A stretch of DNA of 64,000 nucleotides from Pseudomonadota bacterium (GCA_046047875.1 JBJOHD010000098.1:219-64218); one strand, 5' to 3'. Positions 32,074 to 59,139 are shown, numbered from the stretch's first letter. A program made the numbers and translations. Notes: generated by a model not told the origin, from the sequence alone.

Positions 32074-33132
32074 GTGCGGTCGGTGCTTAGGGGGGCGTTT
32101 TACCTTCTTCTTGCGGGAGTCCTCTTTCTCTGTGGCTGTACGCCGCGCTCGACTAAAGTACAAGTGGGCGATCCCCCTTCGCGAGCTGAGCTTGAATCGC
32201 TCGCTGCGCCGATCGCCCTCTACCCCGACCCCTTGCTCCAACGGGTCCTCACCGCTGCCACATTCCCCGATCAGATCCTCGATGCAGCGCTCTTTATCGA
32301 GCGGGGGGGTGAACCGAGCGAGATCGCTCGAAAGCCGTGGGAGCGATCGGTGAAGTACGTGGCAAACTATCCGACCATCCTCACCTCACTCGCCGACGAT
32401 ATCGACCGCACCGTTCGACTCGGAGCGGCGTTTACCGAAAGCCCTGACGAGCTCCGAGATTGTATTCAGACCCTCCGTCGGCGCGCGGTCGAGCACGGAA
32501 ACCTTAAAAGCTCGGCGTATCAGACCGTTCTTGCGAGCGGACCTACCGATGGCGGCGCGACAATTCTGATCGAACCGACCGACCCCGCGGTGCTTTACGT
32601 TCCAAGAAACACAACAACGCTCATCTACGAGCGACCTATCGCGGATCCGGCTGCGCTCTTCCTGCCCCTCGCCACGTTCGGGCTCGGTGTTGCGCTCGCT
32701 GCCACACTCGATCAAGACGACTTTTACTATTACGGCGGCCCGTTTTACGGCCCCGGATTTTGGTACGGTGGGCCGATCTATCGCCGCTGGTACACCTATC
32801 GCCACGATCGCTGGAGACACGATTACGATTACGGAAGAGGTCACTACAGAGATTGGGGGAAGCACCGCCACGAGCTTCACCAAAAGCACTCCGACTGGAG
32901 GCACCATCGGGCCGCTGGTGGAGGCTACCATCGAAGCCAGGGGCCACCCCCCGATAGCCGCGCCTCGTTTCGCCCCGCACCCCACCGCTCCGATCGCTCG
33001 ACCGGGGCCCCCTCTCACCGTGGCGGCGATCGAGGGGCACGCGGCAGCTCACCCCATCGGGGTGGTCACGCCCACACCGGGAGCTCGAGCGGGCGGGGAT
33101 TCGGGGGGCATCGGGGTGGAGGAAGACACTAG
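32074..33132 (+). CDS. DUF3300-like lipoprotein with a His/Arg/Gly/Tyr-rich C-terminal tail
   Basis: Lipobox LFLCGC; LESLAAPIALYPDPLLQRVLTAATFPDQIL matches the DUF3300 N-terminal motif. The C-terminal ~130 aa is low-complexity (HRGG, YRHDRWRHDYDYGRGHY). Confidence 0.55.
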   Translation: MRSVLRGAFYLLLAGVLFLCGCTPRSTKVQVGDPPSRAELESLAAPIALYPDPLLQRVLTAATFPDQILDAALFIERGGEPSEIARKPWERSVKYVANYPTILTSLADDIDRTVRLGAAFTESPDELRDCIQTLRRRAVEHGNLKSSAYQTVLASGPTDGGATILIEPTDPAVLYVPRNTTTLIYERPIADPAALFLPLATFGLGVALAATLDQDDFYYYGGPFYGPGFWYGGPIYRRWYTYRHDRWRHDYDYGRGHYRDWGKHRHELHQKHSDWRHHRAAGGGYHRSQGPPPDSRASFRPAPHRSDRSTGAPSHRGGDRGARGSSPHRGGHAHTGSSSGRGFGGHRGGGRH

Positions 33133-36860: not shown

Positions 36861-37235
36861 ATGAACGCCGCCAAGAAGAAGATACTCGTAGTTGAGGACG
36901 ATAACGACAGCCGAAACGCGCTGTGCGCGATGCTCGATGCGCTCGGATTTAGCTACATCGGCTTCGCCTCCGGCAAAGAGGCTCTCGAAAAGATTAAAGG
37001 CCAGAAGATCGACTTGGCGCTCCTCGATATCATGATGCCGGAGATGAACGGGTACGAGGTCTTAAAAGCACTCAAGGCGATCCCGGAATTCAAAGAGATC
37101 CCGATCATCATGGTGACCGCGAAAGATCAAGACAACGAGATCCTCGAGGGGTACCAGAGCGGCGCCGACTACTACATAACGAAACCGTTTACCGCGAAGC
37201 AGCTCGACTACGGTATTCGTATCTTTCTTGCGTAA
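36861..37235 (+). CDS. Single-domain response regulator (CheY-like receiver)
   Basis: KILVVEDDNDSRNAL...LDIMMPEMNGYEVLKAL...TAKD: a REC domain with the phospho-Asp; 124 aa. Confidence 0.75.
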   Translation: MNAAKKKILVVEDDNDSRNALCAMLDALGFSYIGFASGKEALEKIKGQKIDLALLDIMMPEMNGYEVLKALKAIPEFKEIPIIMVTAKDQDNEILEGYQSGADYYITKPFTAKQLDYGIRIFLA

Positions 37236-44396: not shown

Positions 44397-44915
44397 TTAA
44401 AGGACTCGGCCGTCACATAGATCGCGTACCTTCACGTTGTAGCACTTCCCGGCGTTCGGCACGTTGACACAGAGATTCGAGCTCACCTTCACAAAAGCGC
44501 CACCGTTACTCGTCGCCCGACGAATCTTCGAGGTCGAGCAATTAAATTTATAGCGGCTGAGACACTCGCCGCGGGTGACTGAACATCCAAGACGGGGAGC
44601 GCTGGTACAAATAGCCTTCCCGTTCTTGTCATAGATCTTGGCTCTGGAGTTCTTAAAGGCACGCTTCCCTTGCGTTTCGATGATCGTAGGATTTCGCTTA
44701 AAGAAAGTTATTGGGGTGCCGACGCCGCCCGTACGCTGCACCTGGTTATTCTTATACTGAACGAGAACTCCGAGACTCTTCCTATCATTGATCGACTTAA
44801 CCGTAGGGCAAACTTGTGAAAGCTGCGCCTCGGCGACACCAGCGACTCCCAACACTACAACGAGACCAAAAAAGACCTTGAAGAATCCTCTCATACTGAC
44901 ACCTATCCCTTTCAA
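44397..44915 (-). CDS. Secreted basic Cys/Lys-rich protein, compositionally atypical (low GC)
   Basis: Signal peptide FFKVFFGLVVVLGVAGVAEA; 9 Cys; Lys/Asn-rich. The gene's GC content is clearly below the window average. Confidence 0.5.
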   Translation of the reverse strand: MKGIGVSMRGFFKVFFGLVVVLGVAGVAEAQLSQVCPTVKSINDRKSLGVLVQYKNNQVQRTGGVGTPITFFKRNPTIIETQGKRAFKNSRAKIYDKNGKAICTSAPRLGCSVTRGECLSRYKFNCSTSKIRRATSNGGAFVKVSSNLCVNVPNAGKCYNVKVRDLCDGRVL

Positions 44916-45011: not shown

Positions 45012-45875
45012 ATGCGCAAGAGACCAGGAATAGTTGATCTAATTCGGAATCTTCTCGGAGACTGCGGACATCAAAAAGGCCCTGCGGCGGTCGCCGTGGC
45101 GATCACGATCTTCTCCCTCCTTCTTACCGGTTGCGGCGATAGCGCGCCTCCAAAGCCACCAACCCTCTCCGAATTGTGCGAGGACTCCGCCATGCAGGCG
45201 AAAATCATTAACGGTCGTTCGTGCACCCCCTTTTCTACAACGGTTGTAAAACTCGACCTCTTCGATGACGAAGATAATCGGGTACGCTGTACCGCTATCC
45301 TCATCTCACCAACCCGCATCCTGACAGCGGCCCACTGCTTCGAGGAGTACATCGCTCGGGCGACCGTTACCGTGGGAGATCAATCCCGCGAGGTTATCGG
45401 GGTCGAGTTTCATCCCGATATACGAATGAACGGGATGCTTACAGAGAACGATGTCGCTCTTGCGACCCTCGATGGTGCAGTTCCACCACCACCGCGATCC
45501 CCCCGAATCGGGCCTGCCCCGGAAGTGGGCTCAACTTTGTACATATTTGGTTACGGTCGAACTACTCCCGGAGAGGAACGAACGATTACCGAGAGCGACC
45601 TCTTAGCAGGTACGATGACCTCCTCCGTGGTCTCTTCGATGTTTATCGAGGCAAATTACATCGGAATTGACTCGAACACCTGTCGAGGGGACTCAGGGGG
45701 CCCGGCTTACGTCTTTGATCCGGAGAGCGGGGATCTCGTGTTAGCTGGCATCCTCACCTCCGGCACGCTCCCTTCGTGCGATGTAGGCGATACCTCGGTA
45801 TTCTCAAACCTCACCGCTCCCTCCATCAGGGAGTTTCTCGCACGAGAGGCTCCTGAGATCGAGCAGATCGAGTGA
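45012..45875 (+). CDS. Trypsin-like serine protease (S1 family), lipoprotein-type signal
   Basis: TAAHC (His), GDSGGP (Ser), Asp in DVAL; an N-terminal hydrophobic region with LTGCGD lipobox. Confidence 0.75.
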   Translation: MRKRPGIVDLIRNLLGDCGHQKGPAAVAVAITIFSLLLTGCGDSAPPKPPTLSELCEDSAMQAKIINGRSCTPFSTTVVKLDLFDDEDNRVRCTAILISPTRILTAAHCFEEYIARATVTVGDQSREVIGVEFHPDIRMNGMLTENDVALATLDGAVPPPPRSPRIGPAPEVGSTLYIFGYGRTTPGEERTITESDLLAGTMTSSVVSSMFIEANYIGIDSNTCRGDSGGPAYVFDPESGDLVLAGILTSGTLPSCDVGDTSVFSNLTAPSIREFLAREAPEIEQIE

Positions 45876-45899: not shown

Positions 45900-47807
45900 T
45901 CACTCTCCTCTCCCGGCCCACTCGTCGGTACGGACTGAGGGTGGGTCACTTTTCAGGCACCCTTCACGGTGAAGGGTGCAGGCAAACTTCTCAACATCGA
46001 TCGGCTTCTGAAAAATACCGCTCACCTGAGCAACAAGGCATCTCTCGATATCACCCTCTCCCGAGACCGCATAGATAGGGACACCCCGATCCTTCGCGCG
46101 AATATACTCAACGAGCTTTCGCCCCCCACCGAGGGGCATGCCGAGATCGGTCACAACAATATCGGGCGCGGCGAAGTTAAAGATGCCGATAGCCTCGGGA
46201 ACCGAGGTGGCGATGACGGTCTCAACCGGGTAACGGGAGAGCGCCCGAGCGAGGCTCCGACACGAATCGGGATCGTCGTCGACGAGGAGGATGGTGGGGG
46301 GGTGAACACGCCGGTCACCGCAGGGTAGGCTGCCTTTCTGAATTGAAGCACACTCCACAGAGCGCTGCTCCGTGAGCGGGAAGGTAACGGTAAATAAAGT
46401 TCCTACGTGAGGGGTCGAGGAAACCTCGATCGACCCACCGTTCGCCTCAACAAGCGCTCGTGCAACGACCAGTCCGAGACCGATCCCCTCGATCGAGCGA
46501 TCACCAAAGCGCTGAAATGGGGTAAAGAGCTGCTCGACCTCAGATGCTGTCATACCGACCCCGGAATCTCTGATAGCTATCGAACACCGAGCCTCATCGC
46601 TCTCAACACGAACTCCGATTGACCCCCGCTGGGTGTACTTCACCGCATTTCCAACGAGGTTTGCGACGATTCGGCGGAGGTGTCGGCGATCGATCGAGAT
46701 ATCGACCGGGGCATCGACCTCTGCACTGAGGATCGTCACCCCTTTTTTACTCGCTGTTAGGGCGAAGCTTTGCAGCACCTCCCCTAGTACTGTCGGCACA
46801 CACACCCTCTCCCGCCGCACCGGTAAGCGGCCCTCCCTAAACCGGGTAAAATCAAGGATATCATCGACAAGCTCTCCCGCAGCCTCGCAGTTACGCGCCG
46901 CGATATCGATGAGCTCAGACGCCCCATCACCCTCGGTCTCGCTGCGTAATAAGGAGAGGACTGCGTGAACGTTGTGGAGCGGCGATCGTATATCGTGCGA
47001 GATATGTGCGAGGAACTCCGACTTCCTATCGCTTGAGCGCTCGGCGTCGTCAGCTCGAGCTGACGCTTCGCGAACCGCCTCTAGCAGCCGGAGATCCTCC
47101 TCGATCCGTCGCACGCTGTCTCGGAGCTGGCCCGCCTCGGTGTCGGTCGGAGGGTAATGGTGGGGGAATCCGAGCCAAGCTACCCCGCGGCGAGATAGAC
47201 CCCCGCGGCAAAAGCTAAATGGGTATGCGCCGATATACCTATATCCAAGCTCTGCGAACTCACCGAACACACCACGATGAAGTGATCCATCCCGTATCCC
47301 CCCGGGAGCTCCCGCCCCGGTTCTGAGATAATCTCCGTAGAGCCGCGCCGCCACCGCTCTCAATCGGGTCGAATCGCTAAGAGGTCCCTCGAGGACAACA
47401 CCGCTCGCCGGATCGTGGAGCACGATCGCTGCGCCGCTCGCTCCTGAAACGGCAGAAAGCTCCCTCAAGGACCGTCCCCATACCTCCGCCTCGGTCGTCG
47501 GACACCCTAAGCGATAGGTCGTAGGCTCCCGCTCGACCGCATCGCTCGAAGGGGTAAATCCCACCCGAAATTTAAGGTAATCTACCACGCTTACGATCGA
47601 GTCGACCCGCTCCTTAAGGGACGTTGGCCACGCCCGGAGGAGCACCCCAGGGGACTCTTCGTTGAGCGCCCGCTCCATCCGCTGAAGATAGCTACCGAAG
47701 AGGAACCTCCCCCCAAGGAGACCACCAACGACTCCAACCGCAAACGCCAGGGAAGCGTCCCCGAAGCTACTGAGTGTAAACCAGCGCTCCACCATCACTC
47801 CGAGCAT
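45900..47807 (-). CDS. Hybrid sensor histidine kinase/response regulator
   Basis: HisKA H-box (FLAHISHDIRSPL), HATPase (N-box LVGNAVKYT, G-boxes DSGVGM, GIGLGL), and a C-terminal REC (ILLVDDDPD...DLGMPLGGG). Confidence 0.8.
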   Translation of the reverse strand: MLGVMVERWFTLSSFGDASLAFAVGVVGGLLGGRFLFGSYLQRMERALNEESPGVLLRAWPTSLKERVDSIVSVVDYLKFRVGFTPSSDAVEREPTTYRLGCPTTEAEVWGRSLRELSAVSGASGAAIVLHDPASGVVLEGPLSDSTRLRAVAARLYGDYLRTGAGAPGGIRDGSLHRGVFGEFAELGYRYIGAYPFSFCRGGLSRRGVAWLGFPHHYPPTDTEAGQLRDSVRRIEEDLRLLEAVREASARADDAERSSDRKSEFLAHISHDIRSPLHNVHAVLSLLRSETEGDGASELIDIAARNCEAAGELVDDILDFTRFREGRLPVRRERVCVPTVLGEVLQSFALTASKKGVTILSAEVDAPVDISIDRRHLRRIVANLVGNAVKYTQRGSIGVRVESDEARCSIAIRDSGVGMTASEVEQLFTPFQRFGDRSIEGIGLGLVVARALVEANGGSIEVSSTPHVGTLFTVTFPLTEQRSVECASIQKGSLPCGDRRVHPPTILLVDDDPDSCRSLARALSRYPVETVIATSVPEAIGIFNFAAPDIVVTDLGMPLGGGRKLVEYIRAKDRGVPIYAVSGEGDIERCLVAQVSGIFQKPIDVEKFACTLHREGCLKSDPPSVRTDEWAGRGE

Positions 47808-49072
47808 CGGGGCTCCGATCGAGAACGCTCCTCACACAATCGCTCCACATGAGCGCAGAGTATCCGAGGGTCGGCGCCTTTCGATACGAACGCAGCAACC
47901 CCCGCTTCGATAAGCTCTATCTCCACGTCAACGTCAGAGGCTGAGGTAAGCGCTACAAGCGGTACACCCCTGCCCGCTGAGGTGGCGCGAAGACGTCGAA
48001 TGAAATCGTATCCACTCATCCCCGGCATATGCACATCACAGATGATAAGGTCGAGCTCCGCGCCATCCTGAAGCGCTTGCCACGCTTCGTCGGCCGATGA
48101 GAACGGCTGCACCGAAAAGCGGTGGCGCTCAAGAAACCGGCGTAATACATCGCGGAAAGTCGGGTCATCGTCGATGACAAAGATCGAGCCCCGCGTCGTA
48201 TCGGGAGCTCGGTGCGGGAGCGGGGAGGAACCTTGCCGAGTCGGCGAAGCTCCCCCTAAGGAGCGCCGCGCCTCGGGCCACCCAAGGATGTAACGCTCGT
48301 CCCCACTCTCGCGCTCAATCGTCACGGCGCACGGAGAGCCGTCAGGAAGAACGAGAGCGACTCGCGGCTCCCGCACTACCTCCGCAATCCCCGGCCGCAG
48401 CATTCCGTGCAGGTACCCCCGAACCTCTGCGGTGCCCCCCTCAAACGGCGCATAGCTTAGATCCTCCCCACTGAGATCGAGCAGCAATCGGGTGCTCCCG
48501 CACCCCGAGACCTCATGCACGATGATACCAAGAACCGCCTCGGTGGTCTCGCGAAGACGCCCGAGTGAATCACGCAGTGCAGCAGTCTTAATCTCAGCCA
48601 GCACCCGCTCAGATTCGTGCAGATGCCGTTTAATCTCAGACCACGGCGCTAGAGCGCGGGGGGTCGTGCCGAGTTTTTCTACTAGATGATCGACCCGGTC
48701 GATATCGGCGCACACAACGCAAACCACCGTACCCCGTTCGGTGATTACGGTCGCTCCGCTTGCATCGAGGAGAGCCGTGCTTACTCCGCTTGGAAGGCAG
48801 GTAAAATCAGCGGCGGGAATCCTCTCAAAATACGGAACACCCCGCTCTTTCGCCCACACCCGAACTATCTCGCTGGATGTCATACACCGAGCTTCGGCTA
48901 TCGCATCGATCAAAAGACGTCGATCCGGGGTGAGCCCGATGATCCGCTGCAGATCCTCGATCGATACGTAGCGACCGAGGAGCTCGCTCAGCCCTAAACT
49001 CCCCCGCTGAGATCCCCCTCGCCACGGATAAAGGCGCCTTAGCCACGTGCTGATCACGGCCACGCCGCTCAT
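47795..49072 (-). CDS. Response regulator with an N-terminal GspE-N/MshEN-like domain and a C-terminal receiver
   Basis: C-terminal REC (IFVIDDDPTFRDVL...DLIICDVHMPGMSGYDFIRRL). The N-terminal SLGLSELLGRYVSIEDLQRIIGL resembles the T2SS-E N-terminal (MshEN-type) fold. Its stop overlaps the hybrid HK start. Confidence 0.55.
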   Translation of the reverse strand: MSGVAVISTWLRRLYPWRGGSQRGSLGLSELLGRYVSIEDLQRIIGLTPDRRLLIDAIAEARCMTSSEIVRVWAKERGVPYFERIPAADFTCLPSGVSTALLDASGATVITERGTVVCVVCADIDRVDHLVEKLGTTPRALAPWSEIKRHLHESERVLAEIKTAALRDSLGRLRETTEAVLGIIVHEVSGCGSTRLLLDLSGEDLSYAPFEGGTAEVRGYLHGMLRPGIAEVVREPRVALVLPDGSPCAVTIERESGDERYILGWPEARRSLGGASPTRQGSSPLPHRAPDTTRGSIFVIDDDPTFRDVLRRFLERHRFSVQPFSSADEAWQALQDGAELDLIICDVHMPGMSGYDFIRRLRATSAGRGVPLVALTSASDVDVEIELIEAGVAAFVSKGADPRILCAHVERLCEERSRSEPRCSE

Positions 49073-49761
49073 AAAAACACCTCCGTTCGAACCGCCACAG
49101 CATGAGCGGCGGAGACGAAATGAGGCAGCCCGATCTGTGCGAGCACCTCCTTCAAAAATCCATCGTCGATCGTTTTAAATAGCCGCACCCCGAGCACAGC
49201 GGCAGATCGAAGGTACCGACCATCACCTCCAGGGGATTCCCGAGCAAGAAGCCCCTGAACCTCGTCCCTCGATCTCAGCTCTGCAAGCTCTCTGGCCATC
49301 GCGTGAATATCGATGCGCTCGAGCTCCCCGTTCGGAACTACCATTGAGATAGCGCTGCGATCGATGAAATGAATGTCGTGAAGCCGCGGCTCGCCGGTGA
49401 CCTCATCGACACCGATAATCCCGAGCGTTGCATCGATGCGGTATTCGATCGAGTTGAGGGGAGAGCCCTCTCGGTAGAGATCAACGGCCACGCTGCCGAT
49501 TAACTCTTCAAGCGCTGTATCGATCTCATCGTAGCGGACCACGACCTCGGCTTCGCCCATCGCACCCGAGCGAAGGGTGAACGGCATTACGCGCTCTTCG
49601 TTCAGCGATTTAACGACGATGCGCTCAAGCTCTGCAGAGGCTTCAAGGAATTTAACGACGGCCAACGCTGTGATGATGAATGGAATAGCAACCACCCCAA
49701 GAATAGCCATCTCCAAAAGGGCGATACCCCGGCTTCTCTGCAGCTTGCGGCGTTCTCTCAT
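49069..49761 (-). CDS. TadE/TadG-like pseudopilin/pilus assembly protein
   Basis: N-terminal RGIALLEMAILGVVAIPFIITALAVVKF matches the TadE-like motif. Confidence 0.55.
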   Translation of the reverse strand: MRERRKLQRSRGIALLEMAILGVVAIPFIITALAVVKFLEASAELERIVVKSLNEERVMPFTLRSGAMGEAEVVVRYDEIDTALEELIGSVAVDLYREGSPLNSIEYRIDATLGIIGVDEVTGEPRLHDIHFIDRSAISMVVPNGELERIDIHAMARELAELRSRDEVQGLLARESPGGDGRYLRSAAVLGVRLFKTIDDGFLKEVLAQIGLPHFVSAAHAVAVRTEVFL

Positions 49762-51920
49762 CGGGCGATACCTCCACCGCTTCGGTCGAGTAGGATCATC
49801 GGGAGAACCGAATCGAGTACACCCGCCCCCTCCGACGCGAAAATCGGAGTAATCTGAAACGCCGCCTCAGCGGTATCGACTCGATAACTCCCGAGGAGCT
49901 CGGTAAGGAGCATACGCTCGTCAGGCTCTACCGTCGTATCAAGCCCCGGAAGTATGACGAGATAGATCGCTATCCGCGCCCGACGATCGATGAGAAGCTC
50001 CCGATAGAGAGATAGAACGGCATGGAGCTTCTCCTGGACGGGGGGGCTCGGAAATCGTTCACCCTGACTCCACGGGAGGTCTCCTGAAAATATTATTCCG
50101 AGCCGCCGCGCATGCGGGGCGAAACCACCCCGTTCGCCCACATCCGGCGCTCCAAGCAAGGTGGTAAATATCCCCTCGATAACAGCACCGATCTCCCCTA
50201 TCCCGGAGGTTATCGGAGTTTGTGCTCGTACCGGACTCATCCAGACCGCTCGGCCAACCGAGGGGGACGGCTCCCCTGTGCCGCTCATCGAGCCCGCGAA
50301 GCGATTCACCGGGAATCGGTAATGGGAATACCATTCCTCTTCGAGCGCCGCGTCCGCGCAATCGGCAGCAGTAATCATCTCATCGACGTACCGCGGCTCA
50401 ACGACGCGCACCAGCTCGCTCCCCCCAAACGATCGCACAAGCTCGAACTCGACCCCGTCGCCGGGAAAGATCCCTACGCCTATCCGGCTATCGCCGAAAG
50501 CGCTGAGGTAGTTATGGGCGCGGATCGCCCCGAGCTTGAGCGCCGAGACTATCGGATTAAAACACCGTGCCGTTAGCCTCCGGGGATCCCGAGGGGGGGT
50601 ATACCGGCCACTCAGCTCATCGAAGTACCGGGCCGCACCCCACTCCCCGATATCCCCCCAATCGCTCCCCCCAGAGGAAGCTGGTGCAAGGTAGCGGCTT
50701 AGATCGAGGGCGATTACCCCATCCACCGGACGGGATCTCGCTCGGGCGTAGAGGGTATACGATACATCTCCTGCCACACCGAGAAGTCGCGGGAAGAAGA
50801 GGGTGTTTACACCACGATACATTACCTCGACTGAGTTTCCGGTGGCTTCTACTTCCGCCCCAGACGCAAGGTCGAATCGCTCAAGGTATCGAAGGGTCTG
50901 CTCTCTTGCCTCCTCGGCGCGAGGTAGGTCGCGGACCCCCAAGAGCACGGCATCATCGAGCCGCTGCTGGCGCACCGCGTTGTCGAAAGTTGCCGCTCTT
51001 AGATCCAGTGCAAGGGTTGCTAGAAGGAAGCAGACCGGGAGAATGATAAAAGCGAGGAATAGCGTCAACACGCCACGGTCATCGACGAGTGGAGGAGCCT
51101 TGCTGCTCGAGACCGCACCCTTCGTCATCGAACTCACTTGTAGGAGGGGAACGGTAATAAAGCAGATGACGAGCCCGGTGAAAGTACAAATGAGCGGTGC
51201 TGTGGCTTTAACCGGAAGCTTTGCGATCTCCTCTTCGACGCTCTCTTGAAAGAAAAGCTGGGTTGAATTTCCCAATTCACGGAGTGGCTTAATAAGCTCC
51301 CCTCCCTCGCGGTGAGCGAGCGCGAGGTGAAGAAAGGCGTGACGAATCGAAATCACCTTACTCTCGGCCGCAACCTCCCGTAGGGTATCCTCAAGACCGC
51401 CTCCCCGGTCAACCCGATCAAGAACCTGCCGAAGAAGCTCCGTAACTGAATCCTCGGTGGCTGCTCCATGAACAGCTGCAGGGGTCTCGACGACCCGCCG
51501 GATAGCTCCGAGAACATCGGCGCCCGCTTCGACCGCCATCACGATCCCCTCCATAACGAGGGGGAGATGAAAATTGCATCTCCGTTCAACGGCTTCGAGG
51601 AGACGACGCCGACGTCCCTCATTCCAAAGATAGGCGCTCCCCAAACCGACCGCGAGAAACGAGAAAAGGGGAAGCATCGACAACCCACCGATCGTTCCAT
51701 ACAGCAGAGCACCCAGTATAATAAAAACAACTCCGCCGATAACGGGTCGCTCGAACCGCCTCCCCCTGCTCGGCGCACGCGAGCTCCCCACACCCATTTC
51801 CTGCATCTCCGTGAGGTCGTCTGCAACATCGCGAGGTGAGCGCGCGGTACCGCGCACCAAATGGTAGGCGCTTCCAAGAACGAGCGCGACACACACCAGG
51901 ATCTCCGTCTGGAACGTCAT
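49758..51920 (-). CDS. TadC-like (T2SS-F family) membrane protein fused to a ~400 aa C-terminal extension (possibly degenerate vWA/TadG-like)
   Basis: The N-terminal ~300 aa has the GspF-type TM organisation expected after tadB. The C-terminal extension contains a vWA-like motif VDGVIALDLSRY. 720 aa in total. Confidence 0.5.
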   Translation of the reverse strand: MTFQTEILVCVALVLGSAYHLVRGTARSPRDVADDLTEMQEMGVGSSRAPSRGRRFERPVIGGVVFIILGALLYGTIGGLSMLPLFSFLAVGLGSAYLWNEGRRRRLLEAVERRCNFHLPLVMEGIVMAVEAGADVLGAIRRVVETPAAVHGAATEDSVTELLRQVLDRVDRGGGLEDTLREVAAESKVISIRHAFLHLALAHREGGELIKPLRELGNSTQLFFQESVEEEIAKLPVKATAPLICTFTGLVICFITVPLLQVSSMTKGAVSSSKAPPLVDDRGVLTLFLAFIILPVCFLLATLALDLRAATFDNAVRQQRLDDAVLLGVRDLPRAEEAREQTLRYLERFDLASGAEVEATGNSVEVMYRGVNTLFFPRLLGVAGDVSYTLYARARSRPVDGVIALDLSRYLAPASSGGSDWGDIGEWGAARYFDELSGRYTPPRDPRRLTARCFNPIVSALKLGAIRAHNYLSAFGDSRIGVGIFPGDGVEFELVRSFGGSELVRVVEPRYVDEMITAADCADAALEEEWYSHYRFPVNRFAGSMSGTGEPSPSVGRAVWMSPVRAQTPITSGIGEIGAVIEGIFTTLLGAPDVGERGGFAPHARRLGIIFSGDLPWSQGERFPSPPVQEKLHAVLSLYRELLIDRRARIAIYLVILPGLDTTVEPDERMLLTELLGSYRVDTAEAAFQITPIFASEGAGVLDSVLPMILLDRSGGGIAR

Positions 51921-51923
51921 CTT

Positions 51924-52712
51924 CTAAATCCGCGCACGTACGAGATAGGCCATCCATCCCAGGCCTACCACCATAAGGGCACCGCCAGCGCTCAGCGCTG
52001 CAACACCACGGGGATCTCCCAGGGCCACACCGACTCCGTGGGGATTGGATAACCACTGAAAAACACCGATACAGACCGCACACCCCGCGATTCCGATCGC
52101 GGAGAGACGCTGCATCGCGACCGCCCCCCGAATCTTTCGCCGAAACGATTGACGTTGGCGGGTTACTCGCGCGAGGCGATGCAGGCACTCGCCGAGCGAG
52201 CCACCCTCCCGGCGGGCTATGAGGTAGGCGTTTTGAAGCAGGCGAACATCGGGGTGCCCGCTCGATCTTCCGAAAAGCCGGATAGCGGCCTCTTCCTCAA
52301 CTCCTGATTCGATCGCCCGAGTAAACACCTCAAGTTCCCGGCGCAAAAGTGAACCCTCTGGGAAAAGGGTTGCGGCTGAGGTCAGCGCGACCAGCGGATC
52401 GAGCCCCGCGCGCACCGAGGAGGCGAGCGCCACCAGCAGCGTCGGATAGTCCCGCTCGAACCCTTCGATTCGTTCGAAGCGTTGCCGACTGCGGCGGAGC
52501 ACCGCTCCGACTCCACCGATCGCGCAGACACCCAGTGCGATGAGGCCCCCGAGCCATATAAAAGCGACGAGCAGCACCAGGAATAAAAGAGCCCGCACGC
52601 CCATCGGTGCGGTGGGGAGTTCGGAGTGCGAGGGGAGCTCCTCTTCGGGCTGGTCTGTTCCCCAAGCGAGGAATCGGGCCCGTCGCAGGTCCCGTGTTCG
52701 TAACCCGATCAC
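51924..52712 (-). CDS. tadB: Flp pilus assembly protein TadB-like (type II secretion system F family)
   Basis: 262 aa with an N-terminal TM pair plus a C-terminal TM, positioned directly after cpaF. Confidence 0.6.
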   Translation of the reverse strand: MIGLRTRDLRRARFLAWGTDQPEEELPSHSELPTAPMGVRALLFLVLLVAFIWLGGLIALGVCAIGGVGAVLRRSRQRFERIEGFERDYPTLLVALASSVRAGLDPLVALTSAATLFPEGSLLRRELEVFTRAIESGVEEEAAIRLFGRSSGHPDVRLLQNAYLIARREGGSLGECLHRLARVTRQRQSFRRKIRGAVAMQRLSAIGIAGCAVCIGVFQWLSNPHGVGVALGDPRGVAALSAGGALMVVGLGWMAYLVRARI

Positions 52713-54058
52713 GCAGCCTCCGATCGATCGATGCGCAAAAATGTGGGGAGGGCGCTCAGTACTACCCCATCTGTCGCCCCCTCGAGAAGCTCCCGATGGG
52801 CGCTCAGCCGGGAATGCACCCGCCAGATCGGCTCACCGTTGTCGAACTCGTATCTGAAGATCTCGCGCTGCCGAACAACACCATCCGCCACCGGTCCGAT
52901 CTCACGGATATCCTTGATACGTCGTTCGCCCGTATCACGGCAGACATCGACGAATGCTATTATCTGGACCGCGGTAACAATCTGCTCCGTTAGCACACCC
53001 CGCTGGGCCCCCCGCTGCGCCCGCGCAAGAAAGAGCTCAAGTCGAGAGATCGCTTCGAGCGCACTGCGTGCGTGGAGAGTTGAAAGCCCCGGATGGCCGG
53101 AAGCACAAACATCGACAAAAGCCTCTGCAGCTTCAGCATCTCGGATCTCTCCGAAGATGATCCGATTCATCGCCATACGCATCCCTGCGCGAATACATTC
53201 ACTTGGTGTGATACGCCCCGCCCCCTCCGCGTTTGCCTCACGGGTCGACACATACCGAACGTGAGGATGCTCGAGCCTGATCTCCGGGGTATCTTCGATA
53301 ACCAAAATCGACTCATCGACCGGAACACTCGCAGCGAGAGCTCGGGTGAGGGTCGTTTTCCCGGTTCCGACCTCCCCCACGATGAGCACGGTTCGCCCCC
53401 TCCGAACTAAAATCCGCAGGTAATCGAATACCGTTCGGGGGGCGAAGCCGCGGCGCTCAAGATCTCTGAGTTTGACCGAAGCGAATCGGTTCAGCCGAAT
53501 AGTCAGATACGGCCCCGATTCACACAGCGAGCGATGCACCGCATGAATTCGGGCAAAATCGTCGATCATCCCATCCGCGATCGGTTTTTTGGTGGAGTAG
53601 CTCGACCCTGCGCGATGAAGCAGCCGCTCAACAAAAGCCTCGTATGCCTGGGCAGACGTGAAGCGCAGATCGGTGCCGACCGTTGAGCGCCCTTGTTGGA
53701 CAGCGATCCGAGTAAAGTTGGTGACGATGATATCGGAGACACTCGGGTCATCGACAAGCGGCTGGAGTACACCAAACGGTCTCCGTTCCCGCTCGAGGTG
53801 AGCCTTGATCTCAACTAACTCAAACGGAGATAGTTCGAAGCCGAGCGCGCATGCGGCTTCTCGGATAATCCGATCAAGCTCCCGCTCCGGTAGTGCTTCG
53901 CCCCCCGCCTCATTGCTCCCCAGGGATCGGCGAACGCGCTCGAGGATATGAACGATAGTCGGTGTAGGATGCGCTCCGTAGCGGGGAGAGGACCCTGACA
54001 CAACGCAGGGGATGGTATCAACCCCGTCCTCTATCGGCACCCGGACTGGCTGCTGCAT
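52709..54058 (-). CDS. cpaF: CpaF/TadA pilus assembly ATPase (VirB11/GspE superfamily)
   Basis: Walker A VGEVGTGKTTLTRALA; Asp box; Walker B LIVIEDTPEI; His box. The start is trimmed to the Met at 54058 to avoid a 118 nt overlap with cpaB. Confidence 0.85.
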   Translation of the reverse strand: MQQPVRVPIEDGVDTIPCVVSGSSPRYGAHPTPTIVHILERVRRSLGSNEAGGEALPERELDRIIREAACALGFELSPFELVEIKAHLERERRPFGVLQPLVDDPSVSDIIVTNFTRIAVQQGRSTVGTDLRFTSAQAYEAFVERLLHRAGSSYSTKKPIADGMIDDFARIHAVHRSLCESGPYLTIRLNRFASVKLRDLERRGFAPRTVFDYLRILVRRGRTVLIVGEVGTGKTTLTRALAASVPVDESILVIEDTPEIRLEHPHVRYVSTREANAEGAGRITPSECIRAGMRMAMNRIIFGEIRDAEAAEAFVDVCASGHPGLSTLHARSALEAISRLELFLARAQRGAQRGVLTEQIVTAVQIIAFVDVCRDTGERRIKDIREIGPVADGVVRQREIFRYEFDNGEPIWRVHSRLSAHRELLEGATDGVVLSALPTFLRIDRSEAA

Positions 54059-54059
54059 C

Positions 54060-54968
54060 TTAGCCCCCTCCCCCACGAGCTCTCTCCGAGGAGGAGCCGA
54101 CCGCAAAGCCCTCGGGGATCGTTTCCGCACGAACCCATCTCCCGTTCGCGAGGGCGTAGGCTTTCTGCCCCGCGCCACCCCTACTCAGCGCATAGCCGGA
54201 GATCGACGCCCGCTCCTCAGCGATCACCGCTCCCCCTTTCAATTGCTCGGCGGTAAAGATCGGATCTCCCCAAACATCTTCATCGCTCCCGCTCCGGAGG
54301 GCGAATGCGATCCGGCCCCGAGGTATCGCCGTATTTATAGCGAGGCACTGCTCTTGAGAGACCAGCAGCGTGACGGTGCTCGGAACCAACGGGGTCCCGC
54401 CGCTATCCACCGGAGATACAGAGCGCTCTGCGGAGAGCACCCTCACCTTCTCCGCAACGACCGTCGTGCGATCTTTCTCAACCAAGAGTACATCAACTAC
54501 AGTCCCAGATCCTGCCCATCCCTCAACCGCCGCCGTCGCATCGACCTTTAGGGTCATCGCCCGCATCCCCTGTGGTATCCGCTCCGTAACCGGATTTCCC
54601 CGCGCGGTAAGGGAGATGTTCTGACGAAAGAGGGGCAGGTTCGCGGGAAGGGGGGCAACGGTTACCCCCTCAAGCACCGGTGCAATGTCGGTCAGAGCCC
54701 CCTCCGGGATCTGGTGCCGTGGATAACTCACTTTTTTAAAGCGTATCGCACTGACTCGGGTACCGCTCGCTACCGGAGCAGCCGGCACGGGGAGAAGTAC
54801 TGTATCATGGGCTGCGACGATAGCCGGCGGCCGTTCGGTAACGGTGTTGACTTTCCCACCCCGCACGATCACCGCTGCGGTAACGATAGCCGCGGCGAGA
54901 AGCGACAGACCGATGAGGTTATGTCGCCCCCGCCGAGGATGGGGACGCTCAGCAGACCGAACAGCCAT
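54060..54968 (-). CDS. cpaB: Flp pilus assembly protein CpaB (SAF domain)
   Basis: N-terminal TM anchor; a QIPEGALTDI-type SAF region; position between flp and cpaF. Confidence 0.55.
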   Translation of the reverse strand: MAVRSAERPHPRRGRHNLIGLSLLAAAIVTAAVIVRGGKVNTVTERPPAIVAAHDTVLLPVPAAPVASGTRVSAIRFKKVSYPRHQIPEGALTDIAPVLEGVTVAPLPANLPLFRQNISLTARGNPVTERIPQGMRAMTLKVDATAAVEGWAGSGTVVDVLLVEKDRTTVVAEKVRVLSAERSVSPVDSGGTPLVPSTVTLLVSQEQCLAINTAIPRGRIAFALRSGSDEDVWGDPIFTAEQLKGGAVIAEERASISGYALSRGGAGQKAYALANGRWVRAETIPEGFAVGSSSERARGGGG

Positions 54969-54979
54969 ACACCACCCCG

Positions 54980-55180
54980 CTACTGCGCCAACTCGGAGCC
55001 CCTCGCCTGCGCCCAGGAACCGAGATTCCCCAAAAAGCCTGCCATATCGTTTCCGAAACTGGTGAGCGCGGTAAAAACAATTCCCCCGATAATCGCTGCT
55101 CCCGCCACATATTCGAGGAGCGTGTACCCCCGCTCCTCCCGACGCACGATCCGCACTGCGTATGTTAGCCCTTTTTTCAT
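54980..55180 (-). CDS. flp: Flp/Fap family type IVb pilin
   Basis: 66 aa; LLEYVAGAAIIGGIVFTALT includes the Flp motif (G/XXXXEY) and a hydrophobic helix. Confidence 0.7.
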   Translation of the reverse strand: MKKGLTYAVRIVRREERGYTLLEYVAGAAIIGGIVFTALTSFGNDMAGFLGNLGSWAQARGSELAQ

Positions 55181-56587
55181 TTAACTCTCCGTTACAGTTG
55201 CTAGACGTTTATCCAAACCGGATACCAAGGAGCGGGGATCGATCCCCGTCACCCCCTCGAAAAGCGGGATCTCGAGAGGTGTTTCTCGGTGCGACGCGGG
55301 GAGATTCAGCGTATCGTCGCCGTATGGTGCCGTGGGAGACAGGAGCGGCTCTCTTCGCACCAGCCGTCGCATGCCCCGCTTTAAAAGCGCGCCGAACCCC
55401 TGGCGAGCTGCTGTCGCGGGCGGCGAGGAGGGCTCTACCTCCCCCCACACCCGATCAAGTGCCCGACGAATCTTCCGCCCGCCGCACCGATACAGGGTCT
55501 CACCCGAGCCAGGCCAGAGAGCTCCACGCTTCGAGTGCGGAACACAGACACTTACCGCTTCCTTACTGCCCAGCGCCGCCGCCCGTCCGATCTCCCCCCG
55601 CACGAATCGACCCGCGAGCCCCCCACACGGCGACTGATTCTCTACGATAACTATCCGCGACTGAGCACCGAGGTATCCGCGCACCCGTCTTGCCCATTCG
55701 ACCGAGGGGTAAAGCGCCGCAGGATCGGAGGAGGCAACGAGAATCGCGACATCAGCGGAACGATGGAATACCTCGAGAAATGCACCGCGGGCGCTTCCGA
55801 GATCAACAACAGTGACATCGAACATCTGGTCGAGGATTTCGAGGAGCGTCATAAGAGTGCGTGAACGATCTATCCCCCCAGACCCCACCGAACGTAAACC
55901 GAGACACGGCGGCATCACTTTGAAGGCACCCCCACTCTCGTCGATAGACACGCAGCACTGCTCAACGAACTCAGCAGTGAGGGGGGTCTTCTCCTCAAAA
56001 ATCGACTCAAGCATCTCATTCACAAATGGACGAGCTCGAAGAAATCGTGCCGCGTCCTGGGTCTCAATATCGAAGTCGACTAACACCACCCGCTTCGCGG
56101 CACAGCCAGCGATATCCGCAACCGCTGCCGCTATCGAGGTGACCCCCACACCCCCTTTTCCTGCCCCGACAACAACGAGCTTGCCCCGACTCCCGCTCGC
56201 GCGTTTTCGCCCGAGGAGCACGATCTTCTGCAGGAGCTGTGCGGCGCTCCACCCCGGCGGCAGAACGTCATCAACCCCTGACCGGGCGAGGTGCTCGATA
56301 AGATGGAGGCTCGGATTCGGGGAACGAAGTTGGGCGATTAATATACCGGTCGGAATAAGGCGACGGAGCTCGGCGCATTCGCCGGTGGTATCCTCAGCGA
56401 GTTCCGGACCAACGACACAGATATCGGGAGGCGTGTGAAATCTTACCTCCTGCGGGGACCGTGGAACGATACTGAATCGGGGTATAAACGCGAGATCGGT
56501 CGTTGCAGCGCCTATAGTCTGCTGAAAAGCGTCCACCAACCGATGGCGCGACTCTGCTGAATGATCGACGACGACAAGCTTCAACAT
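55181..56587 (-). CDS. cpaE: CpaE/TadZ pilus-localisation ATPase (MinD/ParA family) with an N-terminal receiver-like domain
   Basis: Deviant Walker A VVGAGKGGVGVTSIAAAVA; an N-terminal ~120 aa REC-like region; first gene of the tad operon. Confidence 0.7.
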   Translation of the reverse strand: MLKLVVVDHSAESRHRLVDAFQQTIGAATTDLAFIPRFSIVPRSPQEVRFHTPPDICVVGPELAEDTTGECAELRRLIPTGILIAQLRSPNPSLHLIEHLARSGVDDVLPPGWSAAQLLQKIVLLGRKRASGSRGKLVVVGAGKGGVGVTSIAAAVADIAGCAAKRVVLVDFDIETQDAARFLRARPFVNEMLESIFEEKTPLTAEFVEQCCVSIDESGGAFKVMPPCLGLRSVGSGGIDRSRTLMTLLEILDQMFDVTVVDLGSARGAFLEVFHRSADVAILVASSDPAALYPSVEWARRVRGYLGAQSRIVIVENQSPCGGLAGRFVRGEIGRAAALGSKEAVSVCVPHSKRGALWPGSGETLYRCGGRKIRRALDRVWGEVEPSSPPATAARQGFGALLKRGMRRLVRREPLLSPTAPYGDDTLNLPASHRETPLEIPLFEGVTGIDPRSLVSGLDKRLATVTES

Positions 56588-56996: not shown

Positions 56997-57704
56997 ATGC
57001 ACGGCTCGATCACCTTCTCCCGCACCCTCATACCCTGGGGCTTTACCGCCCGAATCGAGCTTCTTATCCCGACGCCGCGCGGGGGGCTCGGCGATCTCTA
57101 CACCGAGATCGTGCGCGAGCTTCTTCCGCCCGGGGCGCTCATCGGCGAAACGATCACTGATCGCAAGGGACGAGCTGCGAGCGTGGTTCTCGATCAAGCA
57201 ACACCCGCAAGCGCTCTCCCCCGAGGAGAGGAGATCCTCTTCGTCGCCGGACGTACCCCGACCCCTGACGAGGAACTCCCGGAGATCACCCCTGAGAATC
57301 TGAGCGAGCCGTTTGACCTCTCAATTGTGAGCTCCTTTGAGCAATTTGTTGGCGATCACCACATCGCGCACCGCACCACGGTCGAGCGGCGGGGCGCGTT
57401 CGCAGAGATCCTCGATATCCCCGCGATCGGGCGTTTATGGCCCCTTGTGATCGACCGGCTCCGCTTCGGAATCGAGTACTTTCGGAGTCATCGAAGCGGG
57501 ATCTTCGGTTATACACCCACGGTCGAGCGTACCCTCCTCATCGATGCGGACGGGGCCGATATCCGGGTTGTCTTTGAACACGAACGGCTCACGGCACGAT
57601 CCCCCGAGCAGCTGCTTGCTGATGATGCGGTGCAGGCGCTGACCACCGTAATCGCTCGCGGGACTGGAGCGAACCTCGACGCCTTTATCCGCTCCGCTCG
57701 GTAG
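56997..57704 (+). CDS. Hypothetical protein
   Basis: 235 aa, no motif recognised. Confidence 0.4.
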   Translation: MHGSITFSRTLIPWGFTARIELLIPTPRGGLGDLYTEIVRELLPPGALIGETITDRKGRAASVVLDQATPASALPRGEEILFVAGRTPTPDEELPEITPENLSEPFDLSIVSSFEQFVGDHHIAHRTTVERRGAFAEILDIPAIGRLWPLVIDRLRFGIEYFRSHRSGIFGYTPTVERTLLIDADGADIRVVFEHERLTARSPEQLLADDAVQALTTVIARGTGANLDAFIRSAR

Positions 57705-57711
57705 ACCCGAC

Positions 57712-59139
57712 TCAGCCGCTCACCCGCTGATATACCAGCAGGTTGGTTCCGGACGGGAGCCTCCGTCGAAAAACTTTTTTGAGCTCAAACCGCCGATCTC
57801 CCATCATCACGACCTCATGATCCAACTCTTCGGAGAGCCGATCGAGCTTCACCAGATACCACTCCGCACCGCCCGCGGCAGGTTCGCTCTTGGCTAGGTA
57901 GACCAGCGGCTTCGAGAGCTTTAAGCGAGGTATGTAGTAACTCACCAGCAGCTCATTCCCGATATCGTCATCCCCCGCGATAACGACCCCCTCCTCCTCG
58001 GAGTTTTCCGCCATATATTCAAACGCCCGTCGTACCTTTCCCCGACCGATGCCGAAGGCCTCATCCAGCTGGGAGATGCTTCCGTAGCAGCACACCCCGA
58101 GGAGCCCGAGAGCCACCGCCCGGCCCACGAGCCCCGTCGAAAGAAGGCGTGTAAGCAAGCTGCCGAGCACCCCGTAGAGAAGAACCGTCGGTAGAAGAAA
58201 ATAAGCGACCGAGTTGGTACGAACGAGGGGGGAAAGATACCAAAGGTAGGGCGCGACGAAACAACCACCAAGGTACAGCATCCAGTAGCGCGCTCCCCCG
58301 ATGACCATCAGGTAGAGCTCGATGAGAACGAGGATCGCTGCTATCCCAGCTATGAGACGGGCGAGTGAAATCTGCTCGGGGGACACCACCACGTACTCTG
58401 GCCCTCCAACCGCGAGGCTCACCGCAGAGATCGCCGAGTCGAGAAACGGAGTCAGAGCACCGATACTTTCGGGGGGCACCCCGTGGTAAAAATTGAGATA
58501 AATGAGAACGCACGCCGCCACCGGTGCCAGATGACACTTCCCCACGATGTCGACCATTCGCGTGAACCGAGCGCTAAAATGCAGGGAAAGCGACCAGACG
58601 ATCATCGCTGAGAAGAGGAGAACGAAGGTCGGGTGGGAAAGAAAGGCGAGGATGCAAGCGACCCAATAGACGAGTATCCACCGCCAATCCTCCTCACGAA
58701 GATTTGCGTCGAGCGCGGTAAGCGCGATCAGAGCAAAAAAGACGAGGAATCCGAAACCGCGCGCCTCGGTACTGAATGCAATCACCGGGACCGATATTCC
58801 GAAGAGGAGTGCCGCACCAAAGGCATAGACCCCCATCTGTCGCTGGGCGAACCCCCAGAAGAGTGGGATCGCGGCGAGCGCTGCGGTAACCGCGGGGATT
58901 CGATAGAAGAGGTCGCTCTCCTGCGGGGGGATAAGGGTCAAAACAAACGAGTTGAGAAGATGATTGGTGTGGTGCCGATATATCGTGAGGAGCTGTCCGA
59001 GAGAATCGAGGCGCTGCACCGCCTCGATGGCCCACGCTTCATCGAACCAGATATCACCCCGCATGCCGGTGACGCGCAATAAGAGACCGACGAACGACAC
59101 GAAGAGAACGATAACGAGTATAGCGAGACGGTCACTCAC
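57712..59139 (-). CDS. GT-C fold membrane glycosyltransferase (ArnT/PMT-like)
   Basis: 475 aa with >10 TM helices; a DE-type motif in the first extracytoplasmic loop (GDIWFDEAWA). Confidence 0.5.
   Translation of the reverse strand: MSDRLAILVIVLFVSFVGLLLRVTGMRGDIWFDEAWAIEAVQRLDSLGQLLTIYRHHTNHLLNSFVLTLIPPQESDLFYRIPAVTAALAAIPLFWGFAQRQMGVYAFGAALLFGISVPVIAFSTEARGFGFLVFFALIALTALDANLREEDWRWILVYWVACILAFLSHPTFVLLFSAMIVWSLSLHFSARFTRMVDIVGKCHLAPVAACVLIYLNFYHGVPPESIGALTPFLDSAISAVSLAVGGPEYVVVSPEQISLARLIAGIAAILVLIELYLMVIGGARYWMLYLGGCFVAPYLWYLSPLVRTNSVAYFLLPTVLLYGVLGSLLTRLLSTGLVGRAVALGLLGVCCYGSISQLDEAFGIGRGKVRRAFEYMAENSEEEGVVIAGDDDIGNELLVSYYIPRLKLSKPLVYLAKSEPAAGGAEWYLVKLDRLSEELDHEVVMMGDRRFELKKVFRRRLPSGTNLLVYQRVSG

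Follow-up and report, generated by a model that had tools for sequence, protein, structure and literature searches.

A Tad pilus operon with a TadC-TadG-like fusion and its own kinase-regulator pair in a Bdellovibrionota-like bacterium

Does the Tad/Flp pilus locus found on contig JBJOHD010000098.1 (GCA_046047875.1) specify a machine of unusual composition, or a largely ordinary one whose remaining parts lie elsewhere? The stretch of DNA analysed here (64,000 nucleotides; hereafter the window) is essentially the whole of a metagenome-assembled genome (MAG) contig of 64,233 bp, locus tag RL417_, deposited under the name of a Pseudomonadota bacterium. A preliminary description of this DNA had singled out the segment at 45900-56587 for the absence of secretin and prepilin peptidase genes, for a TadC protein carrying a long C-terminal extension, and for a dedicated hybrid histidine kinase and response regulator. 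The results presented below indicate that the region is a real Tad (type IVc, Flp) pilus operon encoding the inner-membrane, motor and pilin parts of the machine, and that it is mostly conventional. It departs from the common pattern by two conserved, lineage-specific features: a fusion between TadC and a TadG-like protein, and the presence, within the operon, of a hybrid kinase together with a regulator devoid of a DNA-binding domain.

The operon, its lineage and its missing partners

Nine open reading frames (ORFs) lie head to tail on the minus strand. All are present with the coordinates and in the order given by the preliminary description; they are listed here with three internal segments (lengths in amino acids, aa; arrow, cleavage site).

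55181-56587, minus: TadZ/CpaE-like ParA/MinD ATPase, 468 aa (weak P-loop family matches, alignment)
54980-55180, minus: Flp-type prepilin, 66 aa (class III signal motif)
54060-54968, minus: periplasmic alignment protein CpaB/RcpC, 302 aa, anchored at its N-terminus in the membrane (TIGR03177, PF16976)
52709-54058, minus: CpaF/TadA motor ATPase, 449 aa (PF00437, TIGR03819)
51924-52712, minus: TadB-like platform protein, 262 aa, with one T2SSF domain (PF00482)
49758-51920, minus: fusion protein, 720 aa, with T2SSF at residues 127-255 followed by about 440 extra residues
51111-51920, minus: TadC module of the fusion, residues 1-270 (PF00482, identity to the TadC of relative L006)
49758-51077, minus: TadG-like, minor-pilin-like module of the fusion, residues 282-720 (homology to a stand-alone family)
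49069-49761, minus: candidate TadE-like pseudopilin, 230 aa (motif SRG↓IALLEMA)
47795-49072, minus: response regulator, 425 aa (REC, PF00072, at residues 297-409)
48623-48811, minus: regulator residues ~88-150, counterpart of the stretch that matches MshEN (PF05157) below threshold in two orthologues
45900-47807, minus: hybrid sensor histidine kinase, 635 aa (HisKA, HATPase_c, REC)

As read from the coordinates, successive ORFs either overlap by 4-13 nt or are separated by 0-11 nt, an arrangement that fits a single operon. The regulator and kinase reading frames, described earlier as translationally coupled, overlap by 13 nt. A promoter and terminator scan yielded no signal better than that obtained with shuffled sequence.

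The window was compared with related loci, contigs and proteins (labelled L001-L013, P0004 and P0008, L001 being the JGI copy). The same order of nine or ten genes was found in independent assemblies (L002-L005, the P0004 contig, L006-L008, L009 and L010), and its conservation extends to at least five metagenomic lineages related to that of the window, of which two bear the label Bdellovibrionota. The flanks are also shared: CtaA and NUDIX genes border the operon on one side, TerC and Oxidored_q6 genes on the other. Among GTDB species representatives, a scan returned two operon loci titled "Bdellovibrionota bacterium", both from Lake Mendota MAGs. The common gene order and flanks, together with the titles of these two loci, show that the operon is inherited vertically within a Bdellovibrionota-like clade of uncultured bacteria; NCBI's designation "Pseudomonadota" is probably imprecise.

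Most of the operon proteins score below curated family cut-offs. CpaB matches TIGR03177 (pilus_cpaB; 2e-28, 99.3 bits vs a cut-off of 71) and PF16976 (RcpC; 3.2e-13, 50 bits vs 28.8) and has a transmembrane segment at residues 16-40. CpaF matches PF00437 (T2SSE; 5e-33, 114.7 bits vs 24.9) and TIGR03819 (2.6e-61, yet below the equivalog cut-off). The mechanical CpaF ORF spans 52709-54178 and reaches a GTG codon at 54178; the true start is probably the ATG at 54058, since the resulting 449 residues agree with the JGI call on an independent contig and with the length of the orthologues (447-463 aa, 57-76% identity). TadB matches PF00482 at residues 95-213 (3.1e-9, 37.3 bits vs 25.2), its hydropathy profile showing hydrophobic segments before the T2SSF domain and two after it.

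The matches of TadZ are weak: residues 131-190 hit CbiA, AAA_31 and ParA in Pfam and CpaE_hom and a KGGVGR-variant family in NCBIfam, in all cases below cut-off, and the orthologues score better on the P-loop families (4e-9). An N-terminal REC domain had been ascribed to this protein as part of the atypical composition. The alignment does give the first ~130 residues a receiver-like character, with Gly at the position of the phospho-acceptor Asp in all six orthologues ("PDICVVGPEL"), while Pfam detected no REC domain in the window TadZ. A receiver-like (atypical) N-terminus is, however, the canonical TadZ/CpaE architecture (PMC13170226), and for this reason does not count as an atypical feature of the locus.

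Translation of the prepilin gene starts MKKGLTYAVRIVRREERG↓YTLLEYVAGAAIIGG, giving the class III signal motif ...ERG↓YTLLEYVAGAAIIGG. The window prepilin reads G↓YTLLEY and the motif G↓(Y/F/I)(T/S)LLEY is kept in six orthologues; a single hydrophobic segment occupies residues 20-43. Pfam found no Flp_Fap match in the window pilin, and matched only the L006 orthologue, below threshold (E = 0.0095); the pilin call rests on the motif. The same is true of the 230-aa protein, for which Pfam gave no match, TadE included. Its designation as a TadE-like pseudopilin holds by virtue of the pseudopilin-type motif G↓xxxxE, in which G12 and E17 are invariant in six orthologues, and the protein has one N-terminal hydrophobic segment. 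Comparison with the N-terminus of the TadG-like family by hhalign returned an E-value of 6.5e-4 at a probability of only 27%.

All non-overlapping ORFs of at least 80 aa in the window were translated and scanned against Pfam, those outside the locus being concatenated. None matched Secretin (PF00263) or Peptidase_A24 (PF01478), nor was any TadD-like protein found among them, and a tblastn search with Escherichia coli GspD against the window and nine related loci returned nothing below E = 0.75. In the relatives examined, the ±10 kb around the operon likewise yielded no secretin, pilotin or peptidase (precomputed Pfam matches; our own scan for L010). The window therefore contains no RcpA/CpaC secretin, TadD lipoprotein or TadV/CpaA peptidase, just as the preliminary description had it. 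As a mark of atypical composition this absence is weak, because split Tad-like loci are documented for the Kil system of Myxococcus, whose major pilin KilP is probably processed by an unidentified peptidase, with PilD as the suggested candidate (PMC8460266, PMC12075869).

The organism is diderm, judging from the presence of Skp/OmpH (10392-11048; 3.7e-21), already noted in the preliminary description, and of a LolA-like protein (14687-16102). A monoderm-type, secretin-less Tad system was considered and rejected on account of Skp, the LolA-like protein and CpaB. The peptidase cleavage motifs are invariant across the orthologues of both the prepilin (G↓xTLLEY) and the 230-aa protein (G↓xxxxE). 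Motifs of this kind in two proteins, along with the retention of CpaB, imply that a peptidase, and probably a secretin, is needed. These components and the pilotin are probably encoded elsewhere in the genome or shared with another type IV filament system. The idea of a system lacking secretin and peptidase is, in short, unproven, and the absence has ordinary explanations.

The TadC-TadG-like fusion

The 720-aa protein matches PF00482 at residues 127-255 (3.5e-6, 27.4 bits vs a cut-off of 25.2). Its residues 1-270 share 40% identity with the TadC of L006, a stand-alone protein of 288 aa (6e-54), and its residues 282-720 are 26% identical to a stand-alone 531-aa protein of the same relative over the full length of the latter (3e-34). 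In the distant relatives L006-L008 and L010, TadC (288-292 aa) and the product of the next gene (531 or 475 aa) are separate, the tadC stop codon overlapping the following start by 4 nt in a different frame (AAAATGA). A single indel could join two genes so disposed, and a frameshift in sequencing or assembly, foreseen in the preliminary description, was examined as the origin of the long ORF. A collection of 5.8 billion clusters holds five other cluster representatives of the fusion (720-753 aa, 41-52% identity); the six come from NCBI, JGI, ENA and Logan assemblies, and conservation is continuous over the junction in all of them. Furthermore, the fusion is an uninterrupted ORF in L002, L005 and L009, and an identical 720-aa protein is called on the independent JGI contig. 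The conserved junction and the independent assemblies exclude the artefact, the likelihood of which we regard as negligible. We conclude that the 720-aa protein is an old fusion, confined to one sub-lineage, of tadC with the overlapping downstream gene for a TadG-like, membrane-anchored, minor-pilin-like protein.

The nature of the extension emerges from its homologues. An exhaustive search of 1.84 billion cluster representatives with a profile of the extension yielded 434 proteins at E <= 1e-3. Among the best 150 of these, nearly all stand alone, measure 450-580 aa and are matched from residue 5-20; the only two that are longer are fused representatives. In a sample of 62 homologues, 53 match PF13400 ("Tad", putative Flp pilus-assembly TadE/G-like; best 1.2e-11) and 23 match PF07811 (TadE); the window module itself has no Pfam match at E <= 1. 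Since the family to which it belongs gives these matches, the extension is assigned by homology as a TadG-like, minor-pilin-like module that was ancestrally a separate gene. The module has a hydrophobic helix and a part of pilin-like alpha/beta character, in addition to a large alpha/beta domain whose Cys residues C453 and C521 are both invariant across the family. Its leader reads RG↓VLTLF and has no Glu at +5, as is likewise the case in the unprocessed TadG of Aggregatibacter.

The preliminary description had also asked whether the extension resembles a domain of the von Willebrand factor A type (vWA), and had proposed profile searches with its C-terminal half. These searches recovered the TadG relationship through the homologues of the window protein, and no VWA family match in any of the 62. 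The sequence D-L-S-R-Y follows a beta-strand in the window module (D-x-S-S-Y in the family consensus), whereas vWA domains have DxSxS. An AlphaFold2 model of the full 720-aa protein, built from six sequences, had a predicted local distance difference test score (pLDDT) of 54 and showed an alternating beta/alpha pattern in the C-terminal domain. The top PDB matches of this model in Foldseek were the cytoplasmic domains of OutF and EpsF (probability 1.0, E = 0.05-0.07); several vWA-fold proteins also appeared, at non-significant E-values of 0.14-0.98 that must be read against the low confidence of the model. A PDB profile search with the 62-sequence alignment gave nothing. A vWA fold in the extension is no more than hinted at.

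Distant members of the TadG-like family form two-gene cassettes (L012, 1197-3760; L013, 10001-12529) that lie far from any tad core gene. Their partner protein, of 275-278 aa and encoded after the TadG-like one, is homologous to the 230-aa protein of the operon (hhalign probability 90%, E = 1.6e-6), and the L012 cassette adjoins motAB and fliLMNOPQR. These cassettes resemble the separately encoded minor-pilin "Tip" modules of the Myxococcus Kil system (PMC12075869).

The kinase-regulator pair

The assignment of the last gene to a hybrid histidine kinase is confirmed by matches above the Pfam cut-offs to HisKA (residues 262-326, 2.6e-13), HATPase_c (373-479, 1.7e-26) and REC (506-608, 1.3e-15). 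The protein has a transmembrane segment at residues 18-38, almost no periplasmic part, and about 200 residues with no family match. No HPt domain (PF01627) was found in the kinase, the operon or the window, so that the phosphorelay envisaged in the preliminary description, if meant as a multistep relay, lacks support.

In the regulator, an orphan stretch of ~265 aa at the N-terminus is followed by a disordered linker and, at the C-terminus, by a REC domain (PF00072, residues 297-409, 4e-24) whose receiver residues look intact (DDD 301-303, D346, T376 and K398). Pfam and NCBIfam revealed no output domain, whether DNA-binding or enzymatic. In the AlphaFold2 model (pLDDT 76 overall, 80-90 over residues 30-260), the N-terminal region is made up of four short helices (28-77), an alpha/beta unit (81-141), a long helix (144-190) and a beta-rich domain (195-264); a beta-alpha-beta-beta-alpha-beta pattern is apparent near residues ~88-150. 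Full-length orthologues measure 398-434 aa and were found only in the tad operon of relatives. Their length supports the 425-aa form of the protein. The JGI call (L001, 5480-6412) is of 310 aa, lacking the first 115 residues, and is accompanied by a spurious 103-aa ORF on the opposite strand. A protein search with a profile of the N-terminal region returned only two operon orthologues.

The N-terminal domain had been likened to the MshEN/GspE-N fold. This likeness survives in part: PF05157 (MshEN) is the only Pfam family matched by more than one orthologue N-terminus, in two of the eight orthologues and below the cut-off of 23.1 bits (P0008, residues 87-154, 15.1 bits; L005, residues 94-154, 16.9 bits), and the window regulator gave no match to it at E <= 10. 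PF05157 is insensitive to divergent members, as a bona fide T2SSE-family ATPase of a Ralstonia megaplasmid scores only 17 bits, and MshEN-REC architectures are known (PMC5013675). An MshEN-like ancestry of the N-terminus is possible. In other comparisons, Foldseek against the PDB and viral models gave only receiver-domain matches in the top 50, and a PDB sequence search with an eight-sequence N-terminal profile returned nothing meaningful and no MshEN match. With hhalign, the probability was 0.1% against the CpaF family of the operon and below 2% against the N-terminal halves or N2 regions of six PilB/GspE-type ATPases from E. coli and plasmids (eight were fetched; two having no canonical Walker A match were dropped). 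A resemblance of residues 175-265 to the ATPase N2 domain, perceived by eye, was discarded in view of these values below 2%.

Alternatives, known relatives and a working model

Taken as a whole, the data are best explained by a Tad inner-membrane, motor and pilin operon endowed with a TadC-TadG-like fusion and with a regulatory pair of its own, and we consider this explanation likely. Several points weigh against it. No secretin, pilotin or peptidase was seen in the 64 kb or within ±10 kb in the relatives examined, and placing them elsewhere is an assumption. In the regulator, the N-terminal domain has no significant match by Pfam, PDB sequence or profile-profile comparison, and its target is a guess. 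To these must be added the lack of an HPt domain and the low pLDDT of the fusion model.

A further difficulty is the topology of the fusion, which a simple model does not explain. The hydropathy profile shows one transmembrane segment (237-266) after the cytoplasmic T2SSF domain and the TadG-like helix (278-312) some 12-20 residues later. The C-terminus of GspF/PilC-type proteins is accepted as periplasmic. If that of TadC is periplasmic as well, the TadG-like helix cannot run N-in/C-out and place the Cys-bearing domain in the periplasm. Two helices separated by ~12-20 polar residues would set the TadG-like domain in the cytoplasm; the invariant C453 and C521 argue for a periplasmic one. Three ways out are possible: the TadG-like helix may be non-spanning and sit in the platform cone, as in the loaded state; the last TadC segment may be re-entrant; or the precursor may be cleaved. 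A tethered tip subunit would limit filament growth.

Such a tether lies at the heart of one alternative, in which the machine truly has no dedicated outer-membrane channel or peptidase and builds a short, platform-bound pseudopilus, akin to the piston of type II secretion or to a periplasmic or contact device, with the TadG-like module permanently anchored to the base through its fusion to TadC. Genes for secretin, pilotin and peptidase are missing beside the operon in all relatives examined, a linker of ~12-20 residues between TadC and the TadG-like helix would keep the tip subunit on the platform, and the fusion has been retained through divergence to 41-52% identity. Yet the operon retains CpaB, whose counterparts in Pseudomonas and Caulobacter bridge to the secretin complex (PMC12307814, PMC13170226); the peptidase motifs of the Flp prepilin and of the TadE-like protein are intact; tethering is not required for function, given that the fusion is lacking in most relatives, the deeper branches among them; and only a small part of each genome is visible. 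We judge this alternative very unlikely and favour the Tad operon whose outer-membrane and processing components come from elsewhere.

Two other readings concern the regulator. It could be an MshEN-type receptor for cyclic di-GMP (c-di-GMP), the locus then combining phosphorylation with second-messenger control, as the preliminary description had suggested. PF05157 matches at the same place in two orthologues, below threshold; in the model, a segment of four helices precedes an alpha/beta subdomain, which is how MshEN has been described (PMC5013675); and a "DRR" triplet in the helical part is invariant in all eight orthologues. The strict 24-residue motif RLGxx(L/V/I)(L/V/I)xxG(L/V/I)(L/V/I)xxxxLxxxLxxQ is nevertheless absent from the window regulator, and neither it nor the published relaxed version (PMC5013675) occurs in any of the eight orthologues, the best partial matches (7-8 of 11 positions) being equal to those in shuffled sequence. 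Moreover, the PF05157 matches cover the alpha/beta part rather than the c-di-GMP-binding helices, and the PDB sequence search brought up no MshEN. On sequence grounds c-di-GMP binding is thus unsupported, and the receptor hypothesis is distinctly improbable. Alternatively, the pair might have no functional link to the pilus and control something else, or affect transcription alone by way of an additional partner. No output domain is recognisable in the regulator, whose action on the pilus is a predicted one; two-component systems located beside tad loci and acting on transcription do exist, as reported for PprAB of Pseudomonas aeruginosa (PMC6821963, PMC3510237). Against this, the pair keeps its place in every relative examined, the two frames overlapping or abutting, even where regulator identity falls to 27% and lower, and the N-terminal domain family is found only in the tad operon. 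An unlinked pair is therefore unlikely, if somewhat less so than a c-di-GMP receptor, and a regulatory pair dedicated to the Tad machine remains our preferred reading.

The locus has much in common with the Tad/Flp systems of Aggregatibacter (tad), Caulobacter (cpa) and P. aeruginosa (tad-rcp): a CpaF/TadA ATPase, a pair of platform proteins each with a single T2SSF domain, a TadZ/CpaE-like protein with a putative receiver of the atypical kind, CpaB/RcpC, an Flp prepilin with the G↓xxxxEY motif, a TadE-like pseudopilin and a large TadG/CpaL-like protein resembling a minor pilin. Unlike these systems, it is devoid of genes for secretin, pilotin (TadD) and prepilin peptidase within the window, has TadC covalently fused to the TadG-like protein, includes the kinase and regulator in the operon, and shows no VWA Pfam match, its MIDAS-like (metal-ion-dependent adhesion site) motif being DxSxY as opposed to DxSxS. 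Caulobacter CpaL/TadG shares with the TadG-like family an N-terminal hydrophobic pilin-like segment with no Glu at +5 and a large C-terminal alpha/beta domain. It is also encoded with TadE/F-like partners, and has been modelled on the platform before assembly; its fusion to a platform subunit is peculiar to the one sub-lineage described here. The Kil apparatus, a Tad-like predation machine of Myxococcus xanthus with relatives in Bdellovibrionales, is similar in belonging to a delta-proteobacterial or Bdellovibrionota-type lineage, in having components spread over more than one locus and a major pilin processed by a peptidase not encoded with it (a situation inferred here), and in that TadG-like/TadE-like minor-pilin modules can stand apart from the core genes, as in the two-gene cassettes of the distant homologues. 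It differs in several respects. No FHA match was found in CpaF or any other protein of the present operon, there is no evidence of predation, and the regulatory proteins are of a different type. In Kil, the ATPase gene shares cluster 1 with those for secretin and peptidase; in the present operon its companions are the platform and pilin genes.

As for the regulatory pair, the regulator resembles MshEN proteins (PF05157, formerly T2SSE_N; MshE/PilB-type ATPases and MshEN-REC) in its sub-threshold alpha/beta match and similar predicted order of elements, in its association with a type IV filament machine, and in that the combination of MshEN and REC is a reported architecture. Unlike them, it has no c-di-GMP motif, is not attached to an ATPase, gives no significant sequence or profile-profile match, and contains in addition a long helix and a beta-rich domain (residues 144-264) of unassigned family. 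PprA-PprB, from the tad locus of P. aeruginosa, is likewise a dedicated two-component pair genetically linked to Tad genes. PprB induces transcription of its target genes, whereas the regulator described here has no DNA-binding domain; the kinase here is a hybrid one, and the two genes close the structural operon, with which they are co-transcribed.

Several neighbouring genes deserve mention. Just upstream of the operon, 57712-59139 (minus) encodes a membrane protein of 475 aa that has ~8-10 hydrophobic segments, gives no Pfam match and looks by eye like a glycosyltransferase of GT-C/ArnT type; the window, L005 and L009 have it, whereas L002, L003 and L006 do not. GT2 and GT4 glycosyltransferase genes lie upstream of tadZ, on the opposite strand, in L010. 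These upstream glycosyltransferase-like genes may relate to pilin or envelope glycosylation. Divergent from tadZ, 56997-57704 (plus) specifies a soluble protein of 235 aa without a family match; at the corresponding place in L002, L003, L005 and L006 are ORFs of 238-262 aa, without a Pfam match, that are likened to it by size and position only. Downstream of the kinase lies a secreted, Cys-rich 172-aa ORF (44397-44915, minus), to which ORFs of 160-164 aa in relatives are likened by size and position only; the window alone has a trypsin-like serine protease gene (45012-45875, plus) between the kinase gene and the 172-aa ORF. Farther away are genes for a 562-aa HDOD-domain protein (11087-12775, minus), for a stand-alone CheY-like receiver (36861-37235, plus) beside a lytic transglycosylase (SLT_2) and thymidylate kinase, and for a DUF3300 lipoprotein-like protein (32074-33132, plus) with a long low-complexity C-terminal tail rich in His, Gly, Arg and Tyr.

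How might the operon work? Secretin, pilotin and peptidase would be encoded elsewhere in the genome, or some other type IV filament system would share its own. On the TadB/TadC platform, the TadG-like and TadE-like proteins would form a priming or tip complex, a contact of which the fusion would be the record. The kinase, having almost no periplasmic part, would sense a membrane or cytoplasmic cue and phosphorylate the regulator, its own receiver serving as a phosphate sink or as a relay step. Given the lack of a DNA-binding domain, the regulator would act on the machine itself through its N-terminal domain, perhaps distantly MshEN/GspE-N-like, with the CpaF motor, TadZ or the platform as candidate targets, and would switch pilus assembly or activity on and off. 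One can push this scheme further and imagine a phosphorylation-gated Tad machine, in which the regulator supplies in trans the N-terminal module that PilB/MshE-type ATPases carry in cis and CpaF lacks, docks on CpaF or the platform in one phosphorylation state only and thereby sets the timing or direction of the motor, while in the fused sub-lineage the TadG-like priming subunit is held covalently on TadC. We offer this extension as a speculation that is unlikely to hold in full. If it did, the fusion would be natural evidence that TadG-like proteins act at the platform, and would imply a tethered or short filament or else a cleaved precursor.

By itself, the absence of secretin and peptidase genes is not remarkable, as split Tad-like loci and shared peptidases are already known. 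The two lineage-specific features bear on more general questions. The control of the single bifunctional CpaF motor is one of them, a machine-linked kinase paired with a regulator that has no DNA-binding domain being a candidate post-translational switch. For the engagement of the TadB/TadC platform by minor pilins and TadG/CpaL-type proteins at the start of a Tad pilus, the basis so far is cryo-tomography into which predicted models were fitted; the TadC-TadG-like fusion, natural and conserved, provides independent, gene-fusion evidence for the contact between minor pilin and platform.

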